The notes under the pieces were generated by a model. The model was not told the DNA's origin. It did no database searches and saw nothing but the letters and a program-made list of their open reading frames with translations. Position numbers and translations under genes: made by a program. Below, one piece after another: positions 5,927-25,202 of a DNA stretch of 64,000 bases (position 1 is its first letter; every line of letters begins with the position of its first letter). The DNA is taken from positions 444,723-508,722 of the forward strand of contig CBDCUX010000005.1 of the NCBI GenBank assembly GCA_965222805.1. The letters are read 5' to 3'. This DNA is from Candidatus Poribacteria bacterium. GTDB lineage: Bacteria > Poribacteria > WGA-4E > PCPOR2b.

Positions 5927-6400
5927 GTGAACTGTTTTCCAAGTCGAGGAAGCCATCGATTACGGAAAGGACGACAATCAATATCGGGGGCATACTATTT
6001 CCTGATCGCTTCCACGTTTGATCGAAGACCGATACTCGCAAACTCTGAAGTTGTACGAATCATTTTTGAAACCTTTGAATGGCTAGAAGCTCAAGGTCGC
6101 ATCAGATGGACATGTATCATGGTCATGCCGGACCATATCCACGCCGTTATTCAACTGGGTAGAGATCAAACCTTACCAAAAGTCATGCATTCTCTCAAGA
6201 CCTTTACAGCGAGGCAGATTAACAAACAACGTGGTGAACACAGTACAGTATGGCAGGAAGGATATTATGACCACGGCATCCGGAGGGACGAATCTTTGAA
6301 CGAAATTATACGCTACTGCTATGAGAATCCAGTTAGACAAGGCCTAGTCAAACAAGCAAAGGATTATCCATATTGGCGATATAAATACAACATAGAGTAG
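5927..6400 (+). CDS. REP-associated tyrosine transposase (RAYT; IS200/IS605-like Y1 transposase family)
   Basis: 157 aa. YYFLIASTFDRRPIL, the HUH region MPDHIHAVIQL, a catalytic-Tyr region QEGYYDHGIR and ENPVRQGLV are present. REP arrays flank it on both sides. It has a GTG start. Confidence 0.85.
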   Translation: MNCFPSRGSHRLRKGRQSISGAYYFLIASTFDRRPILANSEVVRIIFETFEWLEAQGRIRWTCIMVMPDHIHAVIQLGRDQTLPKVMHSLKTFTARQINKQRGEHSTVWQEGYYDHGIRRDESLNEIIRYCYENPVRQGLVKQAKDYPYWRYKYNIE

Positions 6401-8461: not shown

Positions 8462-10029
8462 TATTGCTAAATCCCTGAGAACTATAGTGTTAGATTTTAG
8501 TAGTAGAACTGAATGCATTCACTACCATCTCATCATAGTGCTACCGAACATGATTTAATAATAATGCGATAGATCGACTAATATACTGGTTATATAATCA
8601 GGAAGGTTGAAGAATCAATTCAATGGGCTTTGGACGCATATCGTGAGAACCGAAACAAAGCTGGCCTCTTTAAGACTGTTGACCAAAGCTGGTTAGGGGA
8701 GGATCGAGAGATTCTTCTACTTCACTTCTGTAGATATATCACCACGATATGCAAAGCTATAGAGGAATGCCATGGAAAAAGTAGACTAACAACAAGGGGA
8801 ACGTTGATCGAATGAGTGAAACGATGACAATTTTGGAGGTATCAATATGAATGAGCGGCAATTTGCGGGTGCCCGGTGGTGGAAATTTGATTTTCATACT
8901 CATACACCTGCCTCGGATGACTTCAAGGACAGAGATGAGACAACACCTGAATCTTGGCTGAAAGCGTTTATGGAAAAGGAAATTGATTGCGTAGCGATTA
9001 CCGATCATAACAGCGGCGGATGGATAGATAAGTTGAAACAGAAGTTAGCAGAATTAGAGGAAAGCAAACCCTCTTGGTATCGCCTCCTGTACCTGTTCCC
9101 GGGCGTGGAAATTTCAGCAAACGGCGGTGTGCATATATTAGCGATCTTTGGATGTGATAAGAATAAGGGCGATATTGATGGGTTGCTCGGCGCGGTTGGC
9201 TATTTAGGTACAAAGGGCGAGAGCGATGCTGTAACGAACGAAAACATTACCAAAGTCGTTGATGAAATTGCAAAACGGGAGGGCATCCCTATTCCCGCGC
9301 ATGTTGATAAAAAAAAGGGGTTATTTCAGCTTTCAGGACAAACACTGGAACAAGTGTTGGAGAATGAAAACATTTACGCGATGGAGTTGCGTGACAGCGA
9401 GTGCCAGAAGCCCCCATCGTACACGGAAAAAAAGGTGGAATGGACTGAAGTTAACGGTTCCGATACTCACAGTTTCAGCGATAGCACATTTGGCACGTTT
9501 ACCTGGATTAAGATGGATGAACCCTCCATAGATGGGTTGGAACTTGCGCTGATAGACGGTAGTGCTTCTGTAAATCGAGACATAAAGACCCAAAGCAGCG
9601 TGCAGAGTTCCTTATAGAAGCGATAGAAATTAGCGAAGCAAAGTACATTGGGCGCTCCGAGCCGTTGCATTGTCAGTTCAGTCCGTTTCTCAACACGATC
9701 ATTGGTGGGCGTGGCAGCGGCAAGTCCACACTACTGGAGTTTATGCGTCTAGCTTTGCGGCGTAATAAAGACATTCCGGAGATGCTAGAAAAGGAGAACC
9801 GTCAATACTTTAGTGTAGAGGAGGAGGACAGCTTACTGACTGAGGATAGCAAAATATCGCTGATCTATTGCAAAGGCCATGTACGCTATCGTTTGAGCTG
9901 GTCGCCCAAGGTAGATGATCTCTCTTTGGAGGAGAAAAAAGATGGTGATTGGAAACCTTGTCCAGGTGAAATCAAGTCGCTTTTTCCGGTACGCATTTAT
10001 AGCCAGAAACAGATCTTTGAATTCGCTAA

Positions 10030-10916
10030 GAACCTGTTTGAAAAAGAAAAAATCTGACTCAAGAGTTCATGTTTACGTCCAATCATTGGAGCAGTGAATA
10101 CCATTCCAATGAAAGGCATAAACATGACCCGAACAACCTATCCCACGGATTTGACCGATGCCCAGTGGGACAATCTGTTCCCCTATCTGCCAAAACCTTC
10201 ACCGGTAGGTAGACCGCTCAAATGGGAGATGCGCTCAATCATCAACGCTATTTTTTATATAGTCAAATCAGGGTGTCAATGGCGAATGCTCCCGCATCAG
10301 ATGCCCCCATGGCAAACGGTCTATTCCCATTTCAGAAAATGGAAAGCCGATGGCACATGGGTGATGATTCATCAAGCACTTCATCACCAAACCCGTTGTG
10401 ATATTGGCAAAGTGCCTTCACCGACAGTCGCTATTATTGACAGCCAATCGGTCAAAACGACTGAACTGGCAGACAGTCGAGGGTTTGATGCACATAAGAA
10501 GGTCAAAGGGCGTAAACGTCATATAGTCACCGATACAATTGGCATTCCATTGCGGGTGAAGGTCACTGATGCCAATGTCAGTGATAACCAAGTCGCAATA
10601 GAGTTACTCAAAGAGGTTTTTAATTGGCACATAACGATTCAGTTAGTCTGTGCGGATGCGGGTTATCGCGGAGAATTAGGTGACTGGTTATATATGGCGC
10701 ATCAGTGTCGATTGGACATTGCGCCATCTGTTAGGCAATCAGGATTTGTAGTTATCCCCTTGCGGTGGATTGTGGAGCGCACCTTTTCTTGGTTCGCTTG
10801 GTTTCGTCGATTGACTGTGGACTATGAACGCTCCGCTGAGACTGCTGAGGCTATGATATACATTGCTTCCATTTACTTGATGCAAAACCGTATCAAATGA
10901 CTTTTAAAACAGGCTC
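10030..10916 (+). mobile_element. IS5-family insertion sequence (887 bp) with imperfect terminal inverted repeats and a TAA target duplication
   Basis: The left IR GAACCTGTTTGAAAAAG (10030-) pairs with the reverse complement of the right IR CTTTTAAAACAGGCTC (-10916). TAA is at 10027-10029 and 10917-10919. It carries a single transposase ORF. Confidence 0.85.
10124..10900 (+). CDS. IS5-family transposase (DDE)
   Basis: MTRTTYPTDLTDAQWDNLFPYLPKP..GRPLKWEMRSIINAIFYIVKSGCQWRMLP....W.TVYSHFRKWKADGTW is the canonical IS5 (IS427/ISL2-like) N-terminus. DDE region: IIDSQSVKT, ADAGY, IVERTFSWF. The start could also be 10094 or 10109. Confidence 0.9.
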   Translation: MTRTTYPTDLTDAQWDNLFPYLPKPSPVGRPLKWEMRSIINAIFYIVKSGCQWRMLPHQMPPWQTVYSHFRKWKADGTWVMIHQALHHQTRCDIGKVPSPTVAIIDSQSVKTTELADSRGFDAHKKVKGRKRHIVTDTIGIPLRVKVTDANVSDNQVAIELLKEVFNWHITIQLVCADAGYRGELGDWLYMAHQCRLDIAPSVRQSGFVVIPLRWIVERTFSWFAWFRRLTVDYERSAETAEAMIYIASIYLMQNRIK

Positions 10917-12594
10917 TAAAGATCCACGCGCACTAATCGATATTATTGATGAAGCTGCTGAGGTTGAAGCGGAGACGATTGAAGCGCAGCGCAGGAGCTT
11001 GGTCAACCAATACAAACAAATTGAGAGTGAACAACGAGAGCTGAATGAGAAAATTACCCGGGAAAATCGGCTGCGCGGTGAGTACTATGATCTGACAAGG
11101 CAGATTGAGGAAATAGAAAAATCGGCGCATGAAGTTGTACTACAAAATTACCGTAAGCGGGAGCAACAGCTAAACGAGCTTGATAGCTTGGAGAGTGAAT
11201 GGGAAGATATGGGGCAGCGTCTTGCGGAAACGCGAAAAAGTATTGCCCCGGTACATTTCAATGAGCAGCTTTTTAGTGAGCACACCGATATTTTGTCGGT
11301 TTTAAGAGAAACAAACAAGAAATGGCTGGCTATCCGCGACAAATTAAGCGCATTGGAACGGGAGGCACAGTCGGTTACCACCGACTGGTACGCTGAAAAA
11401 AATGCGGCGGACTGGATGCAGACGCTCGAGACAGATATGGAGCAGTACGAGTCATTATCCACCAAACTTGAACAGCAAGGCATAGACCCAGGCAGATATC
11501 CCCAGCTATTAACGCAACAAAAGAGCATACAAAAGGAGTTGGATCTAATTAGCGAATATCAGTTACGCGAGAAGGAGTTAGAAGCCGAAAAACGAGCGGT
11601 CTTTAAGCAGATTAAAGAAAATAGGAAAGTGTTGTCGAAAAAGAGGCGAGAATTCTTGACCAATGTTTTACAAAACAATCAAGCTGTCAGCATTGAGGTC
11701 AAACCCTTTGGTGAAGATTGGGAGGGCATAGAGGAAGATATTCGAGGTATACTGCAATGCCCGGATCGTTTCGGCAGAGATATTGCAAGCTTAAAAGATA
11801 TTTATCAGGGGAATGGGGGCAATCAGATTGAAAAACTCAAAGAAACTGTTATACGTATTCGCAGTGGAGAGCAAGCTGCCACGGATGCCCGGTTTGTTCC
11901 CCATTTGGAATCGTTGCCGCAAGAATCTATGAGCGATCTCATTTTATGGTTTCCCGGGGATGATTTGAAAGTCACCTTTGGCCGCAAGCGTCGGCCGATA
12001 GAACAAGGTTCTCCTGGACAAAGAACTGCCGCGCTATTGGCGTTTATTTTATCTTACGGTGATGAGCCCCTATTGCTGGATCAGCCTGAGGACGACTTAG
12101 ATAACGAGTTAATCTACAACTTGATTGTCGAACGATTGAGAGAAACAAAAAGCAAGCGGCAGATTATCGTCGTCACGCACAATGCCAACATTGTGGTTAA
12201 TGGTGACGCGGAAATGGTTTTGCCGCTCAAGGTCGAGAGCGGTGAAACCAAGGTACGACAGGCTGCTAGTATTCAAGAAAAAAAGATTCGGCAAGCAATA
12301 TGCGACATTCTGGAAGGTGGACAACAGGCATTTGAACAGCGTTATAAACGTATTCATCTGGGGGATTAGTGATGTTTATAATGTGCCCCGAAATCTGTAC
12401 TACCGATTAAGTCAGAAATTCGTCGAATGAATACTGATACAGAACTGAAATCCGCGGACTTCATGATAACCTGCGACAATCCGCGATTCAGACAAGTGTC
12501 GAAAAAAATCGTCATTGTAGAAAAAGTCCTTGACAGAAAATTAACCTCGTGATTACATCACCAAACTTCCAAATTGGCACAGGAGGATAAAACC

Positions 12595-13063: not shown

Positions 13064-13528
13064 ATGAATAAAAAAAAGACAATATATCTGGCAAACCCCT
13101 ACGGCTTCTCAGAGCAACAGCGAGAAACCCTATTACCCGCTCTCATTAAAGCATTGGAAGCAGTTGGCTTAGAAGTATGGGAGCCGTTTGAACGCAATAA
13201 TCAAGACAGATTATCCTCCGGCTGGGCGTATCGACTGGGACAAAAGGACAAGCAGGATGTATTCGACGCGGACGGGATTTTTGCTGTCGTGAACGGAGTA
13301 CCACCAGACGAAGGAGTCATGATTGAGCTAGGGATAGCGATAGCGCTAGGTAAGCCCACCTTCCTATTTCGGGACGACTTTCGACGTGCCGCCGATAGCG
13401 ATGAATACCCACTCAACCTGATGATTTTCACAGGCTTACCCCAACTCGAATGGGAACGTTACTACTACACATCGATCAATGACATCCCATCGCCCGATAA
13501 AGCACTGGTAGCTTGGGCTAAAGAATAA
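13064..13528 (+). CDS. Nucleoside 2-deoxyribosyltransferase family protein
   Basis: MNKKKTIYLANPYGFSE...ADGIFAVVNG.PPDEGVMIELGIAIALGKPTFLF is the classic NDT-fold pattern with the conserved Glu. The start could also be ATG 13046. Confidence 0.8.
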   Translation: MNKKKTIYLANPYGFSEQQRETLLPALIKALEAVGLEVWEPFERNNQDRLSSGWAYRLGQKDKQDVFDADGIFAVVNGVPPDEGVMIELGIAIALGKPTFLFRDDFRRAADSDEYPLNLMIFTGLPQLEWERYYYTSINDIPSPDKALVAWAKE

Positions 13529-13569
13529 AAGACGAAAAACGGACAGTCGATCCGATAACGCAGCCGATA

Positions 13570-16500
13570 TTAAAACTGAACCCCCGCAAAGAACCCCGGC
13601 CAAACGCGAACGGTCGTATCACCGCTTTGGTATACGTGCTCAAATCCATATCCAAAATCCGAGGTGTCCCGTTTATCCGAGACGAGGAAGTTGAGCGAAA
13701 GACCACCGAAGACGCTGAACCATTTGTGCCGCTCCCAGCCAAACCCAAGCCGCACTTTATTCAGGATGGTACGTTCATCAGACCACCAAGTGTCCTCCTC
13801 CGCCTCATCGGTATAAGTCACTCCGCGCGTAATAAAGTCAACGTTCAGAAAAAATTGTTGCCTGAGTGGAATATGTCCACCGATACCAAACCCAGACGAC
13901 CATCTGCCCAAATCGCCGTGTGGGTAACTGCCAACCATCAATAGACTATAAACGTGTCGGCTACCGAGGCGGACCCCAAGGTTTGCAGCCTCCGTATCGC
14001 TACCCCACAATTGCAGGTGCAGCGGGTTATCCTTAACAAAGCTGATTAATCCGAGCGGGACGCCGGACATCCGTCCGGAGACATTGAGAAGCCCAATCTG
14101 CGCCGTTCTCACATGCCCAGCGATATTAAGAAGTCCAATCTGTGTGTCAATATCACCATGCGCAATATTGACCGCACTAATCTGTGTGCTGGTGCCTCGG
14201 GTATCTGCCTCTTGGCCCCAACCAAGCGCGATATTAGTGGCTGCGCTGATTTGCGTCCCCTCCAAATTCCCGGCGATGTTGACCCCGGCTGCGATTTGTA
14301 GGCCCTGACTTAACACATTTCGCCCAACAAGATTTAGCCCGGAGCTAATCTGTAATCCCTGAAGGTTGCCACCTGCAAAATTACCCCCGCCAGCGGATTG
14401 AAAGCCCCGGACATTTCTACCGGTGGCGTTGAGTCCTGCCGCCATTTGGAAGCCGTTGAGGTCCCTGCCGCTGACGTTGAAACCACCCGAGGCTTGGAAA
14501 CCCTCCACATCTCTACCGACAGCGTTGAGTCCGCCTGAGATCTGAAGACCATCTACATCCCTACCAACGATATTGCCGACCCCGGCAAGTTGCGCACCCC
14601 GCGCTTCGATCCCCTTCATGTTCAAAATTCCACCCAATTCGATGCCATCCAACTTCGTATGATAGCCTGCAATGATGTTGATGGAAAGGTTCGTTGTAAT
14701 ATTGCGGTTAGGATCTTGAAACCCGGCGGTGCTTATCCACGGAATCAGTGAAATCGTCATAGGCAGATACAAATCGTTACCTTTTGCGGTTACCGGTGTA
14801 ACACCATCGCCCTTTTCTGACGGAGGAAACGGCACCAAGCCGGGGGTAGGTTGAGGCTGCGAAACATTGGTAACTTGGGGAGGTAGTCCTTCATTGTTGA
14901 TCACCGCGGGATCAATGCCTTGGTTGTTCAGGAGTGATATATATTTCCCGTTATAAAAAACACGAGGTGTAATCTGCTGCGGATAGTGTTGCTCTTCGGA
15001 CAGATAGGAATGCCACTCCTCAATGCCGCGTGTCACATAATCCAATAGTCCCAACACTGTGACAGTCCCATCGGCCCCCGCTGCGCCCCGGTCTTGGTGG
15101 TCACCGCGCAACCCTTTGAGCAAGAAGTAGGTAAACAACCCATGTTTGAGTCGCGGTACTTCAGGTGCCCACTGATTGCTGTCACACGCAGTGAAGATAA
15201 TATTGCTCTCTTCACTATAACGCGACAGCCCTGCAACAAAATATTCCTTCGGTGCTACGCGACACGCATCAACAATGACAAAGCGGTGTTTCGCGTTTGC
15301 GCTGTTGAGAACCGCAAACAGGTCTTCGAGGCTCAGCCCGTTGTCCACGAGTGGATCGGTGACATCCATCGGCAGAAAGTAGCCTGTTCCATCAACATCC
15401 TCTCCATGTCCGGAGAGATAAACAGTCAGCAGGTCTACCGCTTCAAGTTGGGCGTGTCGTTGGAGCTGCTCAATTACATTCGCCTTCGTCGGTTGAATGA
15501 GGCTATCGGGTGTCATCAACGTCACATTGACTCCTGCGTCTTGGAACACCTGCGCGACCGCTTTGGCATCATCGGCGGCATATTTGAGGGATTGGAAGGG
15601 GGACGGATAGGCATCCACGCCGATAACAATCGCCCAATGCCGGATGTTGACACCGCTCGCAGCACCAAGCTGGAAATTGCCACCCCCAGCGAGAGCTAGC
15701 GCCCGTCGACCCACCTCTATCATCTGCCCTTTTATCGTCGTGAGGGTTAATGTTTCGTCTTGCTGTGCCATCAAGTCGGTAGAGAAAAACACCTCATCGA
15801 AGCGATTCTCTGGACCCTCAAGGACAGGCTGCCACGCCAGATCCCACTGTCTATGATCGTTCTGAACGTGCTGAACAAGTTGTCGATACGTCAGTCCATC
15901 GGACCCTTGCCCCCCAATCGCCCCATTTGCAGGATTTTGCAACCGGGAAAACACCCGTCGATAGAGGGAATAGGTCATCGCGCTGATAGGTAGATAGGTT
16001 TTACCAATCGGGATGCGCAGTTCATGGACGACCTGGTTGTAGGCAGAAGCCGCTAACAGCAGTGCAAAGTCGGCGGATTCGTCTAAGATGTCCTCCGTAT
16101 GGCTCACGGTCTGGGTAGGTCGAACGACAACCGTTGGAGTATCCGTCGCCGGCGTGCCTTTGGGTCGCCCTAGACGAATCTCTCGGAGTATGTCGCCGGA
16201 GTAGCATGTGTCGATAATGCAGGAGACCTGTTGCGTCGGCAGCTCTTGGAGTAAAATGTTGAGCTCATCATCAAGGAGGTAGGTCCTCGGTGATGCCAGA
16301 TCTGCGTCCACAGGCAACAGCACTTCGTCGTTCCTGTCCGGGTAGCGTCCTTTCGCTTCATCCCCCGGAAAAGTTCCGAGTTTGTCAATAATCTGTGTCC
16401 CATGCCCACTAAAATAAAAAAGCAGGCTATCGGAAGGGGTCAGGCGTCGGCTGAGTTCCCGGAATCTACGCTGAATCTGCGCCTTGTTCGGATTGGTCAG

Positions 16501-16722
16501 GATATGCATCTGTTCCTGTGTGATACCCTGTGCCGAGAGAACCGCTTCCATCAGCTTCAAGTCGTTTGGCGGAGCCTCCAACTGCAAATTTGGATTTTCA
16601 TAGTCCCAAACTCCCACAAGGATGGCGTGTTGCTCGGCGTGGATAAGCTGCGAAAACATTAAGAAAAAGCTACAGACCAACAGTATCCATCGAACCGTTG
16701 ACCCCAACCTATTTTGAACCAT
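13570..16722 (-). CDS. Secreted tandem-caspase (two peptidase C14 domains) protein with a 16-aa G-x-Q repeat region and a C-terminal beta-barrel-like domain
   Basis: - Signal peptide MVQNRLGSTVRWILLVCSFFLMFSQLIHA.
- Domain 1: HAILVGVWDY...FYFSGHGTQ...CIIDTCYSG.
- Domain 2: WAIVIGVDAY...VYLSGHGED...FVIVDACR. The His/Cys dyads are intact in both domains.
- A Pro-rich linker, then about 10 repeats such as GLQISGGLNAVGRDVE.
- The protein ends ...VWPGFFAGVQF (C-terminal aromatic residue, OMP-like).
- ATG 16722 has a GGAG RBS and overlaps the upstream stop by 14 nt. Confidence 0.85.
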   Translation of the reverse strand: MVQNRLGSTVRWILLVCSFFLMFSQLIHAEQHAILVGVWDYENPNLQLEAPPNDLKLMEAVLSAQGITQEQMHILTNPNKAQIQRRFRELSRRLTPSDSLLFYFSGHGTQIIDKLGTFPGDEAKGRYPDRNDEVLLPVDADLASPRTYLLDDELNILLQELPTQQVSCIIDTCYSGDILREIRLGRPKGTPATDTPTVVVRPTQTVSHTEDILDESADFALLLAASAYNQVVHELRIPIGKTYLPISAMTYSLYRRVFSRLQNPANGAIGGQGSDGLTYRQLVQHVQNDHRQWDLAWQPVLEGPENRFDEVFFSTDLMAQQDETLTLTTIKGQMIEVGRRALALAGGGNFQLGAASGVNIRHWAIVIGVDAYPSPFQSLKYAADDAKAVAQVFQDAGVNVTLMTPDSLIQPTKANVIEQLQRHAQLEAVDLLTVYLSGHGEDVDGTGYFLPMDVTDPLVDNGLSLEDLFAVLNSANAKHRFVIVDACRVAPKEYFVAGLSRYSEESNIIFTACDSNQWAPEVPRLKHGLFTYFLLKGLRGDHQDRGAAGADGTVTVLGLLDYVTRGIEEWHSYLSEEQHYPQQITPRVFYNGKYISLLNNQGIDPAVINNEGLPPQVTNVSQPQPTPGLVPFPPSEKGDGVTPVTAKGNDLYLPMTISLIPWISTAGFQDPNRNITTNLSINIIAGYHTKLDGIELGGILNMKGIEARGAQLAGVGNIVGRDVDGLQISGGLNAVGRDVEGFQASGGFNVSGRDLNGFQMAAGLNATGRNVRGFQSAGGGNFAGGNLQGLQISSGLNLVGRNVLSQGLQIAAGVNIAGNLEGTQISAATNIALGWGQEADTRGTSTQISAVNIAHGDIDTQIGLLNIAGHVRTAQIGLLNVSGRMSGVPLGLISFVKDNPLHLQLWGSDTEAANLGVRLGSRHVYSLLMVGSYPHGDLGRWSSGFGIGGHIPLRQQFFLNVDFITRGVTYTDEAEEDTWWSDERTILNKVRLGFGWERHKWFSVFGGLSLNFLVSDKRDTSDFGYGFEHVYQSGDTTVRVWPGFFAGVQF
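14045..14660 (-). repeat. In-frame 48-nt periodic coding repeat (G-[LF]-Q-x-[AS]-G-G-x-N-x-x-G-R-[DN]-V-x)
   Basis: Consecutive 16-aa units are visible in the translation (GAQLAGVGNIVGRDVD, GLQISGGLNAVGRDVE, GFQASGGFNVSGRDLN, GFQMAAGLNATGRNVR ...). They resemble surface-repeat (LA_2272-like) proteins. Confidence 0.7.
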
Positions 16723-17380
16723 TCTGCGCTCCTTTTGTAAAATTTTCCAACAGATCTGAAAAACGTTGGCGTTCAAGCGATAACTTCTCTACCATCGCAT
16801 CGCGCTCGGCGACGGGCAGTTCCCCCAATTTGAGTCGAGATTGGTACAGTTCGACCAGTTTGGCGCACATCGCAAAGTCTTCGGGATGCATCTTCAAAAA
16901 CGTTTCGACCGTTTCAATTGAGGCGGTGAGTTGTCCTGCGTCCGTCGATTCGGGCACAATGAGAAATTCCAACATCCCCTCCGCTGAGAGAGGTGGGGTG
17001 ATGCGTCCTGTAGTTTCACTTCCCTTTTGAGCACCCCATTCTACCGACGGGGTGAGCGGCGAAAAAGTTGCCATAACGAAAAGCAACAGCCCCACCACAC
17101 CGATAGCAGACGGCGCCCATACCGGCACCGGCGTTTTCAATTTTTCGCGTATTTCCAACCAGAGGGAACGGTGCCGAATGGGCAGAAATGGCGGTGCCGT
17201 CGCCGAAATAGAATCAGTCCGAACAGCACCCCCAAAATTTTTTAGTGATTTCTCTGTCTCTTGCAAAATTCTATATTTCCGTTCACACTCTTCGCAGCCA
17301 AGGAGGTGTTCCCGAATCTGAGGGGACAACTCCTCACCAATGGAGCGGAGCAGCTTTTCTTGTACTCGATTACATTTCAT
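16709..17380 (-). CDS. Anti-sigma factor (zf-HC2 type), single-pass membrane protein
   Basis: MKCNRVQEKLL...IREHLLGCEECERKY is the zf-HC2 motif. The TM helix is VWAPSAIGVVGLLLFVMATF. RBS AAGGAGG precedes ATG 17380. Confidence 0.8.
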   Translation of the reverse strand: MKCNRVQEKLLRSIGEELSPQIREHLLGCEECERKYRILQETEKSLKNFGGAVRTDSISATAPPFLPIRHRSLWLEIREKLKTPVPVWAPSAIGVVGLLLFVMATFSPLTPSVEWGAQKGSETTGRITPPLSAEGMLEFLIVPESTDAGQLTASIETVETFLKMHPEDFAMCAKLVELYQSRLKLGELPVAERDAMVEKLSLERQRFSDLLENFTKGAQNGSK

Positions 17381-17427
17381 TTTTTTCAGCCTCCTTTTCA
17401 ACGATGAACTTCGCAACGAGCGAGGTG

Positions 17428-19977
17428 TCAAAATTCAACCGTTAGACCAATATAGGGGATACGCGGGAATTGCTCTGCTTCAAAGATTTCAGGTTCTTCG
17501 ATTTCGACCTCTTCACCTTGGACTTCGAGTGGCGCATCCGGGGTAAAGACGAATTTCACGGTATTTTTCCGGTTATAGACGTTCAGAATATCGAGGAACC
17601 CACCTACTCGCAATCCCATAAAGTCGAATTTGTAACTCACCCGGAAATCCAATTTGTGATACGGGGGCAGTTCAGCCGTGACGGATTCATCAACACTCGC
17701 CAAAAGCGGGTTCAATCCGCGTGTCAGTGGGTCTTGAATGAGCACGATAGAGCTGATTGGCACTTCGGATGTTCCGTTCAAATATTGCCACTTCGCGCCA
17801 ATCTCAAACTTGGGCGTGAAGTTGTAGTTGGCGACAACGCTAACAATATTCGTGTTATCAAAGAAATAGGGCTGATAGGAACTCTCAGGATTCTCGCGTC
17901 GCTCAGCGTGTGTGTAGGCATACGAAATCCAGCCGAAGAATTTATCTGGCACGCGGTGCCGCAGGAACGCCTCTGCACCGCTAACATACGCAGTGCCCTG
18001 ATTAAGATAATTCGCTATCTCATCTGCTGTGACCAATTTCTGCATGTCCTTGTAATAGGTAGCAAACTTGAATTCTGTTCGAGACGAAAGTTCGTGTTCT
18101 AGTTCCATGATATAGTGCCGTGCGAGGCTTGATTCCAATGCAGAGTTTCCGTTCTCCGATAGTATCTGATGTGGTTGCGGGCTCTGTTCATAATGTCCAT
18201 ACGCGAACCGGAGGTTGGAACCACTCGGCAGCGCAAAACTTAGGCTTCCCCTCGGTTGAATAGAAAACTGCCCTGTCAAATCCAGATAATCCAACCGAAG
18301 GCCCAGCGCGCCAGATAGAAAGGGCAACGGGTCATATCGCCCCTGTAAGTAGCCCTCAGCGCGAAGGAAATCGTGACCGAATTCGTAGTGACTTTCTTCA
18401 ATACCGACTAACTCCTGTTGCTGTTCATACACAACGGTTTCTCCTACCACCTCTCCATCTTCATCAACGATTGGGGTAACCGTTTCTACACGGTCCGCGC
18501 TCCCTTCAAATTGTGGGATCCTGCTGTCCTCGAAACTGTTGGCAGGACTGAAGGAAAGAAGGAATCCTGTTTCCAATGCCGCAGGCGCACTTTGATTACT
18601 AGTATCGTCAGGACGTAGATTTAATCGGTAGGACACGTCTTCCCTCAACGTATAGACCGGAACCCTGATATTTATGTCGTAGTGCCCGTAGTCTACCTCA
18701 GAGATAAGCTCTCCATCCGAATCAAATTCATACGACTCAGTGATGGGTGCTTCAAAGTTGATAGTGAGGAAATTAAAGGAACGGGTAAGCGAGAGTTGGG
18801 AGGTAAAATTTTCAGTGAAATTTGAACGGAGATGGATCCCTTGCGCGTTAAACCCATTTTTGAAAAAGGCGGAGATGTGTGCGCCTTCAAACATCTGTGT
18901 TTCTTCTTCCACTTGACCTCCCTCTACTTCTGTAACTTCCGTAGCCTCCACAGATGTCGTTTCCTCAACACGGAAATGATCGGTTGCAGCAAAGGTGTTG
19001 AGCGTCAGGTGATGTTTTTCACCGAGAGGATGGGCAAATTTGAGTTGATAATCTGAAAAGTAGGGAAACTGCTGTCCATCAATGAACCGTCCAACGATGA
19101 GATCGATGTAGCTCCGTCGTCCGGCAATAGACACGTATCCCTCATCCCCAAGTCTGCGCTCAAGCATCCCTTCGGAGTAGAGGATATTCAGGTTAAATTT
19201 GCCGCTCGTCCGCTTCTCTAGGCTATCGCGCGAGTGGATGTCTAGCACCGCCTGCGAATCTAACCCAAATTCCGCACCGTATCCGCCGGCATAAATGTCA
19301 ATTTTCTCAATGACTTCCGAACTGACGGTTGAGAGGAGGCCACCCCAGTGAAACGGATATCCAAGTGGTGTCCGGTCAAAATAGTAAAGGTTAGAGCCCG
19401 GCTCACTTCCACGGATATAGAGAATGCCGAAGTAGTCATTGGGGACACCGATGCTCGGAAGCGTCGTCAACCCTTTGAGGGCATCGTTACCAACGCCGGG
19501 GATGCGTCTCAGTTCGCTCCCCCGGATATCCTTTCGGCTAATTGTTGGTGGGAGACGTTCCCCTTCAACAATAACCTCTTCTAGCATGAGCACCTCACCG
19601 AGGTACAACGTTACTTGGGTGGTATGACCTGCACTTACCTCTATATCAGCTTCCGTAGGAGTGCTGTACGTTGCGTGGGTTATTGACATAGTGTAGGTTC
19701 CTGGGACGATTTTTATAAACCAGAATTTCCCTTCCGCATCGGTTATTTGGCGTTCATCCGTTCCGAGAATATGGACTTCTGCACCGACCACGGGTGCGTT
19801 GGTGCTTCCATCATAGACGGTGCCTTCAATCGTCCCGGTTTGGGATAGTGCTGCGAGTGGCAGCACAAGAACTAGTAGCATAGGGACAAAGAACAGATAC
19901 AAATTCACTGTCCATCTCAACAAAAAATATTTCACTATTATGTCTTTCAATCTATCCTTTCTGTTCTCTTTTGGCAT
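17428..19977 (-). CDS. TonB-dependent receptor-like outer membrane protein with an N-terminal carboxypeptidase-regulatory-like domain
   Basis: GTIEGTVYDGSTNAPVVGAEVHILGTDERQITDAEGKFWF..PGTYTM is a CarboxypepD_reg domain. The plug region is RIPGVGNDALKGLTTLPSIG...YIRGSEP. A long beta-barrel ends in ...PYIGLTVEF. The start overlaps the sigma gene stop (TGATG). Confidence 0.85.
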   Translation of the reverse strand: MPKENRKDRLKDIIVKYFLLRWTVNLYLFFVPMLLVLVLPLAALSQTGTIEGTVYDGSTNAPVVGAEVHILGTDERQITDAEGKFWFIKIVPGTYTMSITHATYSTPTEADIEVSAGHTTQVTLYLGEVLMLEEVIVEGERLPPTISRKDIRGSELRRIPGVGNDALKGLTTLPSIGVPNDYFGILYIRGSEPGSNLYYFDRTPLGYPFHWGGLLSTVSSEVIEKIDIYAGGYGAEFGLDSQAVLDIHSRDSLEKRTSGKFNLNILYSEGMLERRLGDEGYVSIAGRRSYIDLIVGRFIDGQQFPYFSDYQLKFAHPLGEKHHLTLNTFAATDHFRVEETTSVEATEVTEVEGGQVEEETQMFEGAHISAFFKNGFNAQGIHLRSNFTENFTSQLSLTRSFNFLTINFEAPITESYEFDSDGELISEVDYGHYDINIRVPVYTLREDVSYRLNLRPDDTSNQSAPAALETGFLLSFSPANSFEDSRIPQFEGSADRVETVTPIVDEDGEVVGETVVYEQQQELVGIEESHYEFGHDFLRAEGYLQGRYDPLPFLSGALGLRLDYLDLTGQFSIQPRGSLSFALPSGSNLRFAYGHYEQSPQPHQILSENGNSALESSLARHYIMELEHELSSRTEFKFATYYKDMQKLVTADEIANYLNQGTAYVSGAEAFLRHRVPDKFFGWISYAYTHAERRENPESSYQPYFFDNTNIVSVVANYNFTPKFEIGAKWQYLNGTSEVPISSIVLIQDPLTRGLNPLLASVDESVTAELPPYHKLDFRVSYKFDFMGLRVGGFLDILNVYNRKNTVKFVFTPDAPLEVQGEEVEIEEPEIFEAEQFPRIPYIGLTVEF

Positions 19978-20522
19978 CAATACTCATTATCGACGAAATA
20001 GGGAGCCAAGCGTGTTGCGAGCTGTTCTCTCGCGTGATATAGACGGCTTTTAACCGTTCCTTTTCTAATGCCGAGCTTTGTCACAATTTTCTTCACCGAG
20101 AGCTCCTCAATGTAGAACAACCAAATCACCTGTTGATGAATCAAAGGAAGTTCCGAGATTGCGTCCCGAACAACCGCCATTCTCTCTTGAAAGAGAAGAT
20201 CCGTCTCTGGTGCACGAGAATCCGATAGTATCTGCCCAATCCCAAAATTTTCGTCGTCGAGACTGCCAAGCGCACGTCTGGCAGCAGAGCCTTCACGACG
20301 TGACCAGTTCCGAACCACATTTTTCGCGATCCGATGAACCCACGCCAGAAACGCCGTTTCGGATTCGTCCGTGACCTGCTCTAGGTTTTGATGCGCGATC
20401 AGGACGACTTCGCTGCTGATATCCCTGCGGTCTTCGGGCTGACTGTGCTTATAGTAGACGCGACAGAGTTCCGCAATGAACTGCGCGATCTGGGAGTGAT
20501 ATTTTCCGATATCCCTTGCCAC
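19977..20522 (-). CDS. ECF-type RNA polymerase sigma-70 factor
   Basis: Region 2 (FLAWVHRIAKNVVRNWSRRE) and region 4 HTH (LSVKKIVTKLGIRKGTVKSRLYHAREQL) are present. GTG start with RBS GGTAGGAGG. Confidence 0.85.
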   Translation of the reverse strand: MARDIGKYHSQIAQFIAELCRVYYKHSQPEDRRDISSEVVLIAHQNLEQVTDESETAFLAWVHRIAKNVVRNWSRREGSAARRALGSLDDENFGIGQILSDSRAPETDLLFQERMAVVRDAISELPLIHQQVIWLFYIEELSVKKIVTKLGIRKGTVKSRLYHAREQLATRLAPYFVDNEY

Positions 20523-20734
20523 AATGTCCTCCTACCCCTTTTAGTGTTGGGTGGGTTGGAAAGGTTCACTAGGTCCCGTTTATATTTTAACGAAGCCAGA
20601 TAAAACCCATTGTCAAACGAAATTCACTTAGCGTATCAACCACACGCAATTTATGGTGAACTAGAGAAATAAGTAGACATTTACCAATAACTCCGACCCT
20701 AGCGAAGTTTCCAAAGTCCCCCTGAACCCCTCAA

Positions 20735-20800
20735 CCCCCCTGCCCCCTTATCAAGGGGAGTCCCCTTGTCAGGGGAGTTGGGGGATTTAGGGGGTTGGCT
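20735..20800. repeat. Cluster of short GC-rich hairpins (CCCCTTATCAAGGGG, CTCCCCTTGTCAGGGGAG, GGGGGATTTAGGGGG)
   Basis: The palindromes are visible directly. They lie just outside the left end of the IS at 20821. Confidence 0.6.
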
Positions 20801-20820
20801 GTGCATTGGAAGTGTCTAAG

Positions 20821-21936
20821 TAATTGAGGGGTGCTCATAATTGCTATAGAGTCAGGATAACGGTTATAATCTAATCTAACCTTCAAGAAAGAGAGGATTA
20901 TAACATGGGTTATCCTGACAGTGATTATTATATCACGTTTTTGTTTGAACAGCTTGAAACTTTCAACACCTCCGTCGCGTCGGCGTTGACACCGACTCTC
21001 GGACGCCCTAAGTCGTATACAGACGACTGTCTGATTGTGCTTTTCGCCGTCCTGACACTCAAGGGTATCTATTGCTTTAAGGCACAACACAGATGGTTGG
21101 AGATACACGTGCCGGGGGTGCCACGGTTCAATCTACAAACTGTACCCTCTCGTGCGACGCTGGCACGCCGGTACAAACAACTTGCTTGTCGGCTTGAGGC
21201 GTTCATTGAGTTTTTAGGTGATGTTGGTATGACTTTGATTGCCGATGCGTCTTTGGAGGTGGTTTACCAAGATAAAAGTCTGTTTAAGGCAAAAGGTCCG
21301 GTCTGGCATCAGAAAGACAAAAAGGCCAATCGCATTCCAACGGGACTGCGTGCCGTTGATACAGACGCGAGTTGGTCTGTCAGTAAGTACCATGGCTGGG
21401 TTTATGGCTATGGACTGCATCTAACGGTCACCCAACAGGGAGTGCCTTTGATGAGTGCCGTTGATACTGCGTGTGTGAGTGAGAAAGCAATACTTGACCA
21501 ACAAGTCAACAAAATGCTTGCACAAAATGTCGGATATATCGTCGCCGATGCCGGTTACACTGACCTCAAGCGAACCGAGAAACTGGCAAACGAAGGATTG
21601 TTGCTTATCACCCCGGTGATAGGTGCCAAGCGACCTCAAGCCCAGCGGTATGTCGAAACTATTAACCAATCAACACTGTTGCATACCTATCAGCAGAAGC
21701 GCAACGTCGCCATTGAACCGATATTTGAATTGCTCAAGCAACTGCTATCGACACATACCAACCACAAACAGCTACCGGTCTGTGGCAAACCGAATGTGGT
21801 CACGTTTTTGATGCTCGGTGTAGTTTTGCTTCAGGTGGCAATGTTGGTCAATTCTATTTGGGGACTCCCGCTGAGAAATGTCACACATGTCATCGCTGTA
21901 TTTCGATAATTTGATTTATGAGCACCCCTCAAATAA
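20821..21936 (+). mobile_element. IS element (IS4/IS5-superfamily DDE transposase) with ~17-20-bp terminal inverted repeats
   Basis: TAATTGAGGGGTGCTCATAA (20821-20840) pairs with TTATGAGCACCCCTCAAATAA (21916-21936). The core TTGAGGGGTGCTCATAA matches perfectly. Confidence 0.8.
20905..21909 (+). CDS. DDE transposase (IS4/IS5 superfamily)
   Basis: 334 aa with VADAGYTD, YQQKRNVAIEPIFELLK (a YREK-like signature) and DASWSVSKYHGWVYGYGLH. Confidence 0.8.
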   Translation: MGYPDSDYYITFLFEQLETFNTSVASALTPTLGRPKSYTDDCLIVLFAVLTLKGIYCFKAQHRWLEIHVPGVPRFNLQTVPSRATLARRYKQLACRLEAFIEFLGDVGMTLIADASLEVVYQDKSLFKAKGPVWHQKDKKANRIPTGLRAVDTDASWSVSKYHGWVYGYGLHLTVTQQGVPLMSAVDTACVSEKAILDQQVNKMLAQNVGYIVADAGYTDLKRTEKLANEGLLLITPVIGAKRPQAQRYVETINQSTLLHTYQQKRNVAIEPIFELLKQLLSTHTNHKQLPVCGKPNVVTFLMLGVVLLQVAMLVNSIWGLPLRNVTHVIAVFR

Positions 21937-23815: not shown

Positions 23816-25202
23816 CTAGTAGTACTAAAGTTAGTACAATTTGATAGTAATTCATGCAGCGTTATCAAGAGTCTGTTGAATATCGGGCGAGTATGTATCT
23901 TTGTCGTTTGTCTGCGAAAATAATCTTCCCTCCATAAAGGCGCATAGATACTGAACCATCAACCCGCGTGTCAATTTAGTGGGTCGATACCAGTCAATGC
24001 CTAATTCCCAGCATACCTGCTCGACTGTTATGGACCTGCCAGTGGCACAAGTAGCATTGAATATCAATTGTGTGATGCAACTCGCCACGAAACTGAGTTG
24101 TACCAATCGATTGATGCTTTTCCGCGATTTGACTCGATACTTGTCAAACCCGAAGTGTTGCTTGGTGTCCCGAAAAGCAGTCTCAATCAACCATCGTTGC
24201 CGATAGTATCGAACTATCTGACATAGGTCAAGTGTCAAGTCAGTGGTGTAGACACAGAAATATCGAAACGGCTTTGATTTTTTAGGTCGGGTTCGCATCA
24301 CCACCAATCGCACTTGAGTAGGACACATTTTGGTCCGCACGACCTTAGATGCGACTGAACACCGTTTGTTGTCAATATCAATCGCTTTATACCGAAGATG
24401 CCGAAGATGGATGCGTTTACCGTATGTCTTTGGGCGTCCGGGTTTAGGTCGCTTGCAGACCGTGGGTAACAGATAAAAGACCGCATTGGACTTGGCGCGA
24501 CACAAGATATGATGTCCTGCGTTAAGGACGGCTTCAAACACTTTCCGTCTATTGAACCCCCGGTCAAAGATAATCAGTCCGGGCGGGATTTGGGAGCAAA
24601 TCCGCTTGAGAACCGACCCACTGTTGTCCCGATGGGTCTTTGGACATATCAGGTTCACCCACACCGGAAATAGAATCGTCTCTGTAACGGTGGTACAAAG
24701 CAACCCCAACGCGCCAAACTGATGACCAAAGTGGAACTTCGATTGATTAGTATTGCGCTTTCGGTAGCGATGATTTCTGAAGAAATGGAGTCCAAATTGC
24801 TTCTCCCCGGTCTTTACCGCTCGGGTCTCGTCGTAAACGTAGACCCAGTTGTCAAACCAACCTTGCAGCAACTTAATCAGATGTTGAGCAACCGCATCGG
24901 CGTCCCATTTGCCACGGGAGAGGAACTTCACCAATGAACCGTAACCGACCTTCGGGCGAACCGCTTGATAGATGCCCGTCAACGTCGCACGATGGCGGTG
25001 CGTGATAAGACCGACGATGAAGGTACAAAACAACGCGAAGTTTTGACGGTTGAATAATGGACGAAATTGCGTTAAAATATCAACGAGGCAGAAAATGACG
25101 GGCATGATAACTCTCCTTTCAAAATTGTGATGGATTTCTGAAAGGATACCCGCTTTTCTGCCTTTTTTCACCCTAAAATTGTACTAACTTTAGTAGTAGT
25201 AG
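23816..25202 (-). mobile_element. IS4-family insertion sequence (~1.39 kb) with ~29-bp terminal inverted repeats
   Basis: CTAGTAGTACTAAAGTTAGTACAATTTG (23816-23843) pairs with the reverse complement of AAAATTGTACTAACTTTAGTAGTAGTAG (25175-25202). Confidence 0.8.
23852..25105 (-). CDS. IS4-family DDE transposase
   Basis: VYDETRAVKTG, IIFDRGFN and the exact Y-x2-R-x3-E-x6-K signature YRQRWLIETAFRDTK are present. ATG 25105 follows RBS AGGAG. Confidence 0.85.
   Translation of the reverse strand: MPVIFCLVDILTQFRPLFNRQNFALFCTFIVGLITHRHRATLTGIYQAVRPKVGYGSLVKFLSRGKWDADAVAQHLIKLLQGWFDNWVYVYDETRAVKTGEKQFGLHFFRNHRYRKRNTNQSKFHFGHQFGALGLLCTTVTETILFPVWVNLICPKTHRDNSGSVLKRICSQIPPGLIIFDRGFNRRKVFEAVLNAGHHILCRAKSNAVFYLLPTVCKRPKPGRPKTYGKRIHLRHLRYKAIDIDNKRCSVASKVVRTKMCPTQVRLVVMRTRPKKSKPFRYFCVYTTDLTLDLCQIVRYYRQRWLIETAFRDTKQHFGFDKYRVKSRKSINRLVQLSFVASCITQLIFNATCATGRSITVEQVCWELGIDWYRPTKLTRGLMVQYLCAFMEGRLFSQTNDKDTYSPDIQQTLDNAA

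Follow-up and report, generated by a model that had tools for sequence, protein, structure and literature searches.

What role a bacterial caspase can play when its gene is joined to those of a sigma factor and its inhibitor is the question raised by four linked genes of a Candidatus Poribacteria bacterium, located at positions 13570-20522 of a 64,000-nucleotide stretch of contig CBDCUX010000005.1 (hereafter, the window). These genes encode a sigma factor of the extracytoplasmic function (ECF) type, a TonB-dependent transporter, a transmembrane anti-sigma factor and a secreted double caspase. Comparison with related loci reveals that the conserved unit consists of the sigma factor, the anti-sigma factor and an outer-membrane-anchored caspase, while the transporter, a lipoprotein and the extra caspase domain are embellishments of Poribacteria. 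We hold this anatomical and evolutionary description of the module with high confidence. The full mechanism considered here, in which an outer-membrane-tethered periplasmic caspase would cut the anti-sigma factor and free the sigma factor, is put forward as a credible proposal in which our confidence stays short of even.

The four genes lie on the minus strand in the order sigma factor, transporter, anti-sigma factor and caspase (Table 1), and the linkage and junctions reported in a first-pass annotation of this DNA were reproduced in the open reading frames (ORFs). The sigma TGA and the transporter ATG have one base in common (TGATG), the anti-sigma ATG, with AAGGAGG as its ribosome-binding site, follows the transporter stop after 47 nt, and the caspase ATG sits upstream, 14 nt from where the anti-sigma TAG ends, an overlap of 14 nt that was also found in 10 of the 14 Poribacteria loci inspected. 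The sigma gene starts at a GTG with a GGAGG ribosome-binding site. Longer TTG-initiated versions of the caspase gene (13570-16776) and the anti-sigma gene (16709-17431) are present in the ORF list; since ribosome-binding sites precede the ATGs, which are conserved in relatives, the ATGs are likely the true starts of both genes. Four-gene synteny in related genomes, a check that the first-pass annotation had suggested, was found to extend across Poribacteria. More than 120 proteins are closely related to the caspase protein. The caspase gene was located in 27 loci, of which 26 belong to genomes with the label Candidatus Poribacteria and one to an unclassified metagenome-assembled genome (MAG); in most of them all four genes are collinear.

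Several loci depart from this layout. An extra gene for a lipoprotein of ~115 aa (MKHQALLLVISCMTLSIVLGGC...), which has no Pfam match, stands between the sigma and transporter genes in 12 of 24 loci inspected (including L002-L006, L008-L011, L013 and L025; e.g. L002 6007-6605); the window lacks it, and there the sigma and transporter genes overlap. One Poribacteria genome carries two copies of the trio without an internal transporter, L024 (10001-14618, CAXXCS010000002.1) and L021. In one of these copies, the caspase gene is broken after residue 356 by ~1.4 kb with two ORFs (182 and 247 aa), which is probably an insertion sequence.

The arrangement extends well beyond this phylum. A profile search recovered more than 4000 single-caspase proteins of the family; the named members, all annotated merely "caspase family protein", belong to Myxococcota (almost all) or to a delta-/proteobacterial MAG. 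The view of the cassette as peculiar to this genome or phylum is therefore not tenable, as its single-caspase version is common in Myxococcota. Eight long representatives from a search with the C-terminal region of the caspase protein were all scanned, and each combines a single caspase with the same solenoid and barrel as the window protein. In a sample of ten loci outside Poribacteria, encoding nine single-caspase proteins, the gene immediately upstream of the caspase encodes a transmembrane protein of 253-277 aa at every locus, with a 4-nt overlap at seven of the ten. An ECF sigma gene lies upstream of the transmembrane protein gene at all seven loci (six proteins) where the Pfam-scanned sequence reaches. 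The sample includes the complete genomes of Stigmatella aurantiaca DW4/3-1 and Vulgatibacter incomptus, in which the triad is found among housekeeping neighbours (rpsD, dnaN, argB and argC). Because the trio recurs outside Poribacteria without a transporter, the core comprises three genes. A caspase-less relative with the LA_2272-type solenoid and barrel had no sigma or anti-sigma gene nearby in the one informative context.

The protease itself was examined in its 1050-aa translation, where both the signal peptide and the Pro-rich linker described earlier can be read; the signal-peptide junction, AEQ(H/Y)A(I/L)L(V/I)GVW, is conserved in orthologues. Profile search confirms two C14 domains with intact His-Cys dyads, as first annotated: the protein matches PF00656 (Peptidase_C14) in two stretches at 122.5 bits (cutoff 21.4; E 2.8e-35), and domain 1 alone matches it at 62.4 bits (E 6.8e-17). 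A comparison of domain 1 with yeast Yca1 (7qp0) gives E 2.7e-7 and aligns the SGHG, PVD and DxCxSG motifs. The dyad motifs are FSGHG/DTCYSG in domain 1 and LSGHG/VDACR in domain 2. All 25 full-length orthologues compared keep the two dyads, an Asp at the second position ahead of each Cys and the terminal GVQF with its Phe. Orthocaspases and metacaspases with this Asp cut after basic residues (PMC6426788), and because both domains carry it, both are predicted to be Arg/Lys-specific. The single caspase of the relatives P0129 and P0135 is collinear with domain 2 and not with domain 1, and this alignment indicates that domain 2 is ancestral in the family while domain 1 is a Poribacteria-specific addition.

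The remainder of the protein provides the anchor. Pfam found no family in the C-terminal 441 residues (610-1050), and the fold was therefore taken from a homologue-based model. An exhaustive search with residues 641-1050 returned 4634 cluster representatives, so the C-terminal module belongs to a large family, and an alignment of 49 homologues from this search was supplied to AlphaFold. The resulting model is all-beta (pLDDT 92, pTM 0.76) and comprises a solenoid of ~250 residues, in which strands of four and seven residues take turns and the pattern repeats every 16 residues (pLDDT above 90), followed by eight long strands. Eight clear G-x-Q copies (residues 709, 725, 741, 757, 773, 789, 807 and 822) with degenerate copies on both sides make the initial estimate of about 10 repeats a fair one. 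The window protein has no match to NF047436 (LA_2272_repeat) and reaches NF047437 at E 0.0022, far below cutoff; its C-terminal homologues (phmmer E 1e-86 to 4e-58) match NF047436 with best E-values in the range of 1e-11 to 1e-12, down to 4e-12. In a Foldseek comparison with the PDB, every neighbour is an outer-membrane barrel, with the best target-normalised TM values (0.45-0.59) given by the 8-stranded OmpX, NspA, OmpW and a designed barrel. The model and these neighbours together support the outer-membrane-protein-like C-terminus ending in Phe that had been proposed from the sequence. A classical autotransporter (type Va, 12-stranded) was considered and rejected, as about eight strands are modelled, EspP ranks 34 at a TM of 0.27 and no Pfam match was obtained.

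The topology of this barrel determines where the protease would act. In the model, the odd-numbered connections are long (14 and 13-20 residues) and the even-numbered ones short (2-4 residues), as would be the case for a first strand that starts on the periplasmic side; the long connections would then be extracellular loops and the short ones periplasmic turns. Because an eight-stranded barrel has both of its ends in the periplasm, the solenoid, the linker and both caspase domains are predicted to be periplasmic. The "surface-anchored" caspase of the first-pass annotation is thus unlikely, since the predicted barrel places the N-terminal caspases on the periplasmic side.

The putative partner of the protease is the product of the upstream gene. 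By itself, the window anti-sigma factor has no significant Pfam match (zf-HC2 at E 2.1); its identity rests on its family, in which 23 of 31 members match zf-HC2 (best E 3.8e-6) and the H25-x3-C29-x2-C32 motif of the N-terminal helices is invariant. The anti-sigma gene occurs in the same operon as the sigma gene in all loci, and its product presumably holds the cognate sigma factor. An AlphaFold model places a transmembrane helix at ~89-106, a low-confidence segment at 107-143 and a confident three-helix bundle at 148-221, and a profile search for solved structures of the anti-sigma factor returned none even at E 10. The juxtamembrane linker (107-143) is highly conserved and predicted to be disordered, with an invariant K119-G120 and LEFLIVP. 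Residues 129-143 (PPLSAEGMLEFLIVP; window ~16952-16996) are nearly invariant across all Poribacteria anti-sigma factors and yet of very low confidence in the monomer model; this segment looks like a docking motif that might fold only on a partner.

Outside Poribacteria, the upstream transmembrane proteins form one family, with an anti-sigma-like N-terminus and one hydrophobic segment read as a transmembrane helix. Their periplasmic domain is weakly DUF4384-like (four of six members, best E 0.0044); among the accessory domains that occur in fusion with cyanobacterial orthocaspases, DUF4384 ranks fifth in frequency (PMC8283722). For the Poribacteria anti-sigma factor, the only relatives found share at least 50% identity. 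A shared origin of the two families was considered and rejected: because BLASTP returned nothing and hhalign gave a probability of 6%, they are treated as non-homologous or diverged beyond recognition. Both families carry an invariant Lys-Gly pair shortly after the transmembrane helix.

The sigma factor contains sigma-2 and sigma-4 regions only (Sigma70_r2, E 9.5e-7; Sigma70_r4_2, E 1.8e-11) and exceeds the cutoff of TIGR02937 (sigma70-ECF; 68.1 bits against 42.9), while none of the specific ECF subgroup models reaches its cutoff with this protein. Its identity among Poribacteria loci is 59-87%. An ECF-type promoter upstream of position 20522 was among the features to be sought according to the first-pass annotation, and a conserved motif is present there, at 20540-20568. 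The pattern TGAACC-N15-ACACTAA has a single match in the window (0.02 expected), and each of 22 Poribacteria loci has exactly one copy of the motif, in every case directly upstream of the sigma gene. In an alignment of the upstream regions, the TGAACC(T)TTT...N...ACACT(A/T)AA blocks are kept at a fixed distance from the sigma start, with unalignable flanks. One motif per locus argues for a single autoregulated transcript, and the whole operon is presumed to depend on this one sigma-dependent promoter.

These components suggest the following sequence of events. The barrel would be inserted in the outer membrane, its two ends pointing into the periplasm, where the solenoid rod and the Pro-rich linker would hold the protease domains; a rod of ~12-15 coils and a flexible linker of ~50 residues may let the protease reach toward the inner membrane. 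Upon a signal, the protease would cut the disordered juxtamembrane linker of the anti-sigma factor, probably after the invariant Lys of Lys-Gly, intramembrane proteolysis would next free the sigma factor, and the freed sigma factor would raise expression of the whole operon in a positive feedback. To this scheme, Poribacteria would add an Oar-class transporter, sometimes the small lipoprotein, and an additional, metacaspase-like protease domain, with the transporter most likely supplying or gating the signal or moving a product across the outer membrane.

The reasons for regarding the anti-sigma factor as the substrate of the caspase are circumstantial, but they converge. In two phyla with unrelated anti-sigma factors, it is specifically the anti-sigma gene to which the caspase gene is coupled; an invariant Lys-Gly follows the transmembrane helix in both families; in Poribacteria, this pair sits in the best-conserved yet predicted-unstructured stretch; and the D-x-C signature of both C14 domains is that of proteases cutting after basic residues (PMC6426788).

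Several points weigh against this proposal. Contact between the caspase and the anti-sigma factor is inferred, and co-transcription with translational coupling would fit equally well if the protease were an output of the sigma factor. The Lys-Gly pair could be structural, as in the myxobacterial family it lies at the start of the folded DUF4384-like domain. A protease activating its own operon would lead to runaway feedback unless restrained, and no inhibitor was identified; nor has the transporter an assigned role in the mechanism. On the structural side, the overall confidence of the anti-sigma model is low (pLDDT 64), the Foldseek E-values are weak (best 3e-3, none below 1e-3), the periplasmic orientation comes from counting strands on a predicted model, and the NCBI name of the repeat family is "surface repeat-containing".

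The alternative that survives best makes the caspase an output alone. The sigma and anti-sigma factors would sense another cue, such as thiol/redox stress via the zinc site or general envelope stress, and the transporter and caspase would be their regulon, with no cleavage of the anti-sigma factor and with the caspase serving as a periplasmic protease that is induced by stress to turn over or remodel envelope proteins. ECF operons often include their own target genes downstream, one sigma-type promoter motif serves the whole operon, and the ZAS motif is invariant, all of which this account accommodates. It leaves unexplained, however, the translational coupling of caspase and anti-sigma factor in two phyla with two unrelated anti-sigma families, the fact that the most conserved periplasmic part of the anti-sigma factor is an unstructured linker with an invariant Lys, and the presence in the myxobacterial anti-sigma factor of a weakly DUF4384-like domain that is otherwise fused to caspases. 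We regard it as possible but doubtful.

Cleavage of the anti-sigma factor by the caspase also has precedents in known systems. In Myxococcus xanthus, DdvA is a ZAS anti-sigma factor with a periplasmic TPR-CHAT caspase-fold domain, for which self-cleavage before RseP has been proposed (PMC11506125). DdvS/DdvA and the present module have in common an ECF sigma factor with a zinc-type single-pass anti-sigma factor (presumed to hold it in the present module), a periplasmic caspase-fold His-Cys protease (periplasmic by prediction in the present module), and a flexible juxtamembrane linker as the proposed site-1 target before RseP. They differ in that the protease here is separate, anchored in the outer membrane, of C14 rather than CHAT type and in tandem in Poribacteria, and in that the periplasmic part of the anti-sigma factor is a small helical bundle without TPR; no controlled defence island was seen. 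In the type III-E CRISPR Craspase, the CHAT protease Csx29 (TPR-CHAT) cleaves the anti-sigma-like Csx30 and frees the ECF factor CASP-sigma (PMC10028731). The likeness, which on our side is a proposal, lies in a clan-CD protease linked to an ECF sigma factor and its inhibitor, in sigma activation by inhibitor cleavage and in sigma-binding motifs within the own locus; Craspase, unlike the present module, is cytoplasmic and RNA-guided, has no membrane components, and differs in protease family and inhibitor. The sigma-E pathway of E. coli (RseA/DegS/RseP) follows the logic proposed here, with a transmembrane anti-sigma factor, a periplasmic site-1 protease sensing outer-membrane status and a subsequent site-2 cut. 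DegS is, however, an inner-membrane-anchored serine protease encoded outside the rpoE operon, whereas the candidate here is an outer-membrane-anchored cysteine protease coupled to the anti-sigma factor. Further links are provided by CHAT proteins, which occur near ECF54 sigma factors (PMC8999054), and by EACC2-caspase systems, which adjoin ECF sigma genes (PMC8195603).

Such links also invite a reading of the operon as an anti-phage or programmed-cell-death device, in which an envelope-sensing sigma/anti-sigma pair would switch on a killing or arresting caspase. This would accord with a match to the PADLOC "caspase" model (E 5e-34), with the resemblance of the caspase domain to EACC1-associated caspases, with the coupling of EACC2-caspase systems to ECF sigma factors (PMC8195603), with the control of a defence island by DdvS/DdvA (PMC11506125) and with a Ppl gene disrupted by an insertion sequence (IS) ~1.2 kb away. 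The resemblance has its limits: domain 2 scores 116.2 bits against NF047832 (EACC1-associated caspase), below the cutoff of 140, and no EACC domain was detected in the caspase protein. Bacterial orthocaspases, metacaspases and EACC-associated caspases resemble the present protein in their p20-type fold, in the His-Cys dyad and in having Asp at the second position ahead of the Cys (PMC6426788, PMC8195603); the present protein differs in its signal peptide, LA_2272-type solenoid, 8-stranded barrel and tandem domains and in lacking EACC. The other components of the operon are without a PADLOC match, the protease is not cytoplasmic but exported and anchored in a membrane, the Stigmatella and Vulgatibacter triads stand among housekeeping genes instead of defence islands, and the neighbouring Ppl gene is not conserved beside the operon. 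Assignment as a defence system was rejected, given that only the generic PADLOC caspase model matched and that the real defence match (Ppl) belongs to the neighbouring IS-disrupted genes, and we consider a defence role improbable.

The transporter bears on a further account, modelled on FecI/FecR/FecA, in which a ligand bound by the receptor would be signalled to the anti-sigma factor and the caspase would be a downstream effector. The transporter consists of a signal peptide, a CarboxypepD_reg N-terminal extension (E 7.7e-16), a TonB-box-like LEEVIVEGER, a plug (Plug, E 4.3e-5) and a 22-strand-type barrel (TonB_dep_Rec_b-barrel, E 5.2e-14) with a terminal Phe. The first-pass annotation had described a CarboxypepD_reg N-terminus without a signalling extension, and both parts of that statement stand, as a Pfam scan of the transporter matched CarboxypepD_reg and did not find the STN signalling domain (PF07660). 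By their combination of CarboxypepD_reg, plug and barrel, some TonB-dependent transporters have been set apart from signalling transducers as the Oar subclass (Gomez-Santos et al., PMC6434023). In M. xanthus, Oar is needed to secrete the protease PopC (PMC6434023). Compared by architecture, Oar and the present transporter are alike in CarboxypepD_reg, a plug with a TonB-box-like motif and a barrel, and both are genetically tied to a protease, although Oar is not part of a sigma/anti-sigma operon.

The distribution of the transporter is informative in this respect. In divergent loci it is 36-38% identical to the window version, against 54-77% for the other three genes (sigma 63-77%, anti-sigma 54-62% and caspase 62-74%). 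This fast divergence was seen relative to L012, L016-L019, L022 and L027 with the domain architecture retained, the TonB-box-like EEVIVEGER ahead of the plug being PEVPVTAER in the divergent versions, and it could reflect diversifying selection on a ligand- or partner-binding surface. The L021 and L024 cassettes have no internal transporter, and L023 likewise has its sigma gene adjoining the anti-sigma gene; a plug-less barrel gene lies displaced upstream of sigma in L023, and two ordinary transporters lie farther upstream in L021. As all ten cassettes sampled outside Poribacteria also lack it, the transporter is outside the conserved core and an addition of Poribacteria. In one lineage outside Poribacteria, represented by two near-identical metagenome contigs, exbB-exbD-tonB directly follows the trio (L029 7688-9476, L030 7304-9092), which hints that TonB energy transduction is tied to the module even without a transporter gene in the cassette.

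In favour of the FecIRA-type account, then, are the presence, in almost every Poribacteria locus, of a TonB-dependent transporter linked to the sigma/anti-sigma pair and ExbB-ExbD-TonB right after the triad in that one lineage. The two clusters are also alike in uniting an ECF sigma factor, a transmembrane anti-sigma factor and a TonB-dependent outer-membrane protein. Against it, the transporter has no STN domain, and no FecR-family domain (FecR, DUF4880 or DUF4974) was matched by the window anti-sigma factor or its 31 family members. Because these defining domains were not found, the cell-surface-signalling framing of the first-pass annotation is rejected. The operon also departs from FecI/FecR/FecA in gene order, in its additional protease gene and in a transporter that the conserved core can do without, that is missing, displaced or absent in the loci listed above and that diverges much faster than its neighbours. 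Signalling of this type is very improbable here. A host-interaction role, with the double caspase displayed on the surface or released via the Oar-like transporter to cleave sponge proteins, would suit a sponge symbiont whose added domain 1 resembles eukaryotic-type metacaspases, the ability of Oar-class transporters to export a protease (PMC6434023) and the "surface" in the NCBI repeat-family name, but the 8-stranded topology puts the N-terminal domains in the periplasm and the same family and triad abound in free-living soil Myxococcota, making this role extremely improbable.

The claim of novelty in the first-pass annotation survives in part. A literature search, which did not cover the supplements of the ECF classification paper, found no description of the cassette. 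Coupling of a caspase-fold protease to an ECF sigma/anti-sigma pair is already known, as DdvA, Craspase/Csx30, ECF54 and EACC2 illustrate. What is new is the separate LA_2272/8-strand outer-membrane anchor and the C14 rather than CHAT chemistry, together with, in Poribacteria, the tandem protease and the Oar-class transporter; moreover, the trio of sigma factor, inhibitor and caspase is widespread and unstudied in myxobacteria.

Table 1. Features of the operon and its flanks, in window coordinates.
Feature	Position	Strand	Description	Basis
Putative ECF-type promoter motif	20540..20568	(-)	TGAACC-N15-ACACTAAA; ends ~18 nt upstream of the sigma GTG	
ECF (group 4) sigma-70 family sigma factor	19977..20522	(-)	181 aa	Pfam, TIGR02937
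TonB-dependent transporter, Oar subclass by architecture	17428..19977	(-)	849 aa	Pfam domains
Transmembrane zinc-type (ZAS) anti-sigma factor	16709..17380	(-)	223 aa	Family alignment, zf-HC2, AlphaFold model
Caspase gene	13570..16722	(-)	1050 aa	
Caspase signal peptide	16636..16722	(-)	Residues 1-29, ...LIHA/EQ	Read from translation
C14 domain 1	15733..16635	(-)	~Residues 30-330; metacaspase-like; H107/C173, D171	Pfam, Yca1 match
C14 domain 2	14953..15642	(-)	~Residues 361-590; H439/C487, D485	Best Pfam stretch 379-561
Pro-rich linker	14773..14925	(-)	~Residues 600-650, ...PPQVTNVSQPQPTPGLVPFPPSEKGDGVTP...	Read from sequence
Predicted beta-solenoid, LA_2272-type	14038..14772	(-)	~12-15 coils; 16-aa G-x-Q-x-x-G-x-x-N repeats	Repeat spacing, AlphaFold
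Predicted 8-stranded outer-membrane beta-barrel	13573..14037	(-)	~Residues 896-1050; ends GVQF	AlphaFold, Foldseek
Terminator-like hairpin	13540..13554	(-)	Followed by TTTTT; 16 nt past the caspase stop	

The surroundings of the operon in the window are marked by mobile elements. The total count of terminator-like sites across the region is not above chance, and the hairpin at the caspase end is suggestive by position only. The caspase stop is separated by 41 nt from the end of a convergent nucleoside 2-deoxyribosyltransferase gene (13067-13528, plus strand; PF05014, E 4e-25). Most of the closer loci carry this gene downstream of the caspase as well, with an identity of 87-95% that exceeds the conservation of the operon itself. 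An IS200-like Y1 transposase and two DDE transposases are encoded at 5927-6400, 20905-21909 and 23852-25171, and one of these genes begins ~380 nt upstream of sigma. The interval between this transposase gene and the promoter motif contains G-rich and C-rich repeats (20700-20830), with similar sequence upstream of the L020 sigma gene. The Ppl-type anti-phage gene (8847-12369, plus strand) is split into an N-terminal part at 8847-9617 (PADLOC Ppl, E 8.7e-49) and a C-terminal ATPase part at 10897-12369 (Ppl, E 1.2e-56), separated by an IS4/5-family transposase gene at 10094-10900, and was probably inactivated by this insertion sequence.

The roles of bacterial caspase homologues remain largely open; most carry no annotation beyond "caspase family protein", and their known natural substrates are few. 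The present analysis ties an uncharacterised caspase subfamily of more than 4000 proteins to a specific partner, the anti-sigma factor whose gene directly precedes and usually overlaps that of the caspase, and points to a candidate cleavage site, and this subfamily occurs in cultured, genetically tractable myxobacteria. In its broadest and speculative form, which we doubt but still entertain, the triad would be an unrecognised, phylum-spanning class of ECF activation in which an outer-membrane-tethered caspase, carried by a rigid solenoid and a flexible linker, acts as the site-1 protease for the inner-membrane anti-sigma factor and reads outer-membrane state or envelope geometry, with the Poribacteria switch gated by, or feeding, an Oar-type transporter. 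If the proposed cleavage is correct, bacterial C14 "orthocaspases" would gain a defined physiological substrate and a signalling role, and a second, CRISPR-independent example of caspase-fold proteases controlling ECF sigma factors would be at hand; should the protease trigger sigma release, it would be a new kind of site-1 protease in regulated intramembrane proteolysis. For the sponge symbionts, the metacaspase domain and the Oar-type transporter would represent a lineage-specific elaboration of an envelope signalling device.

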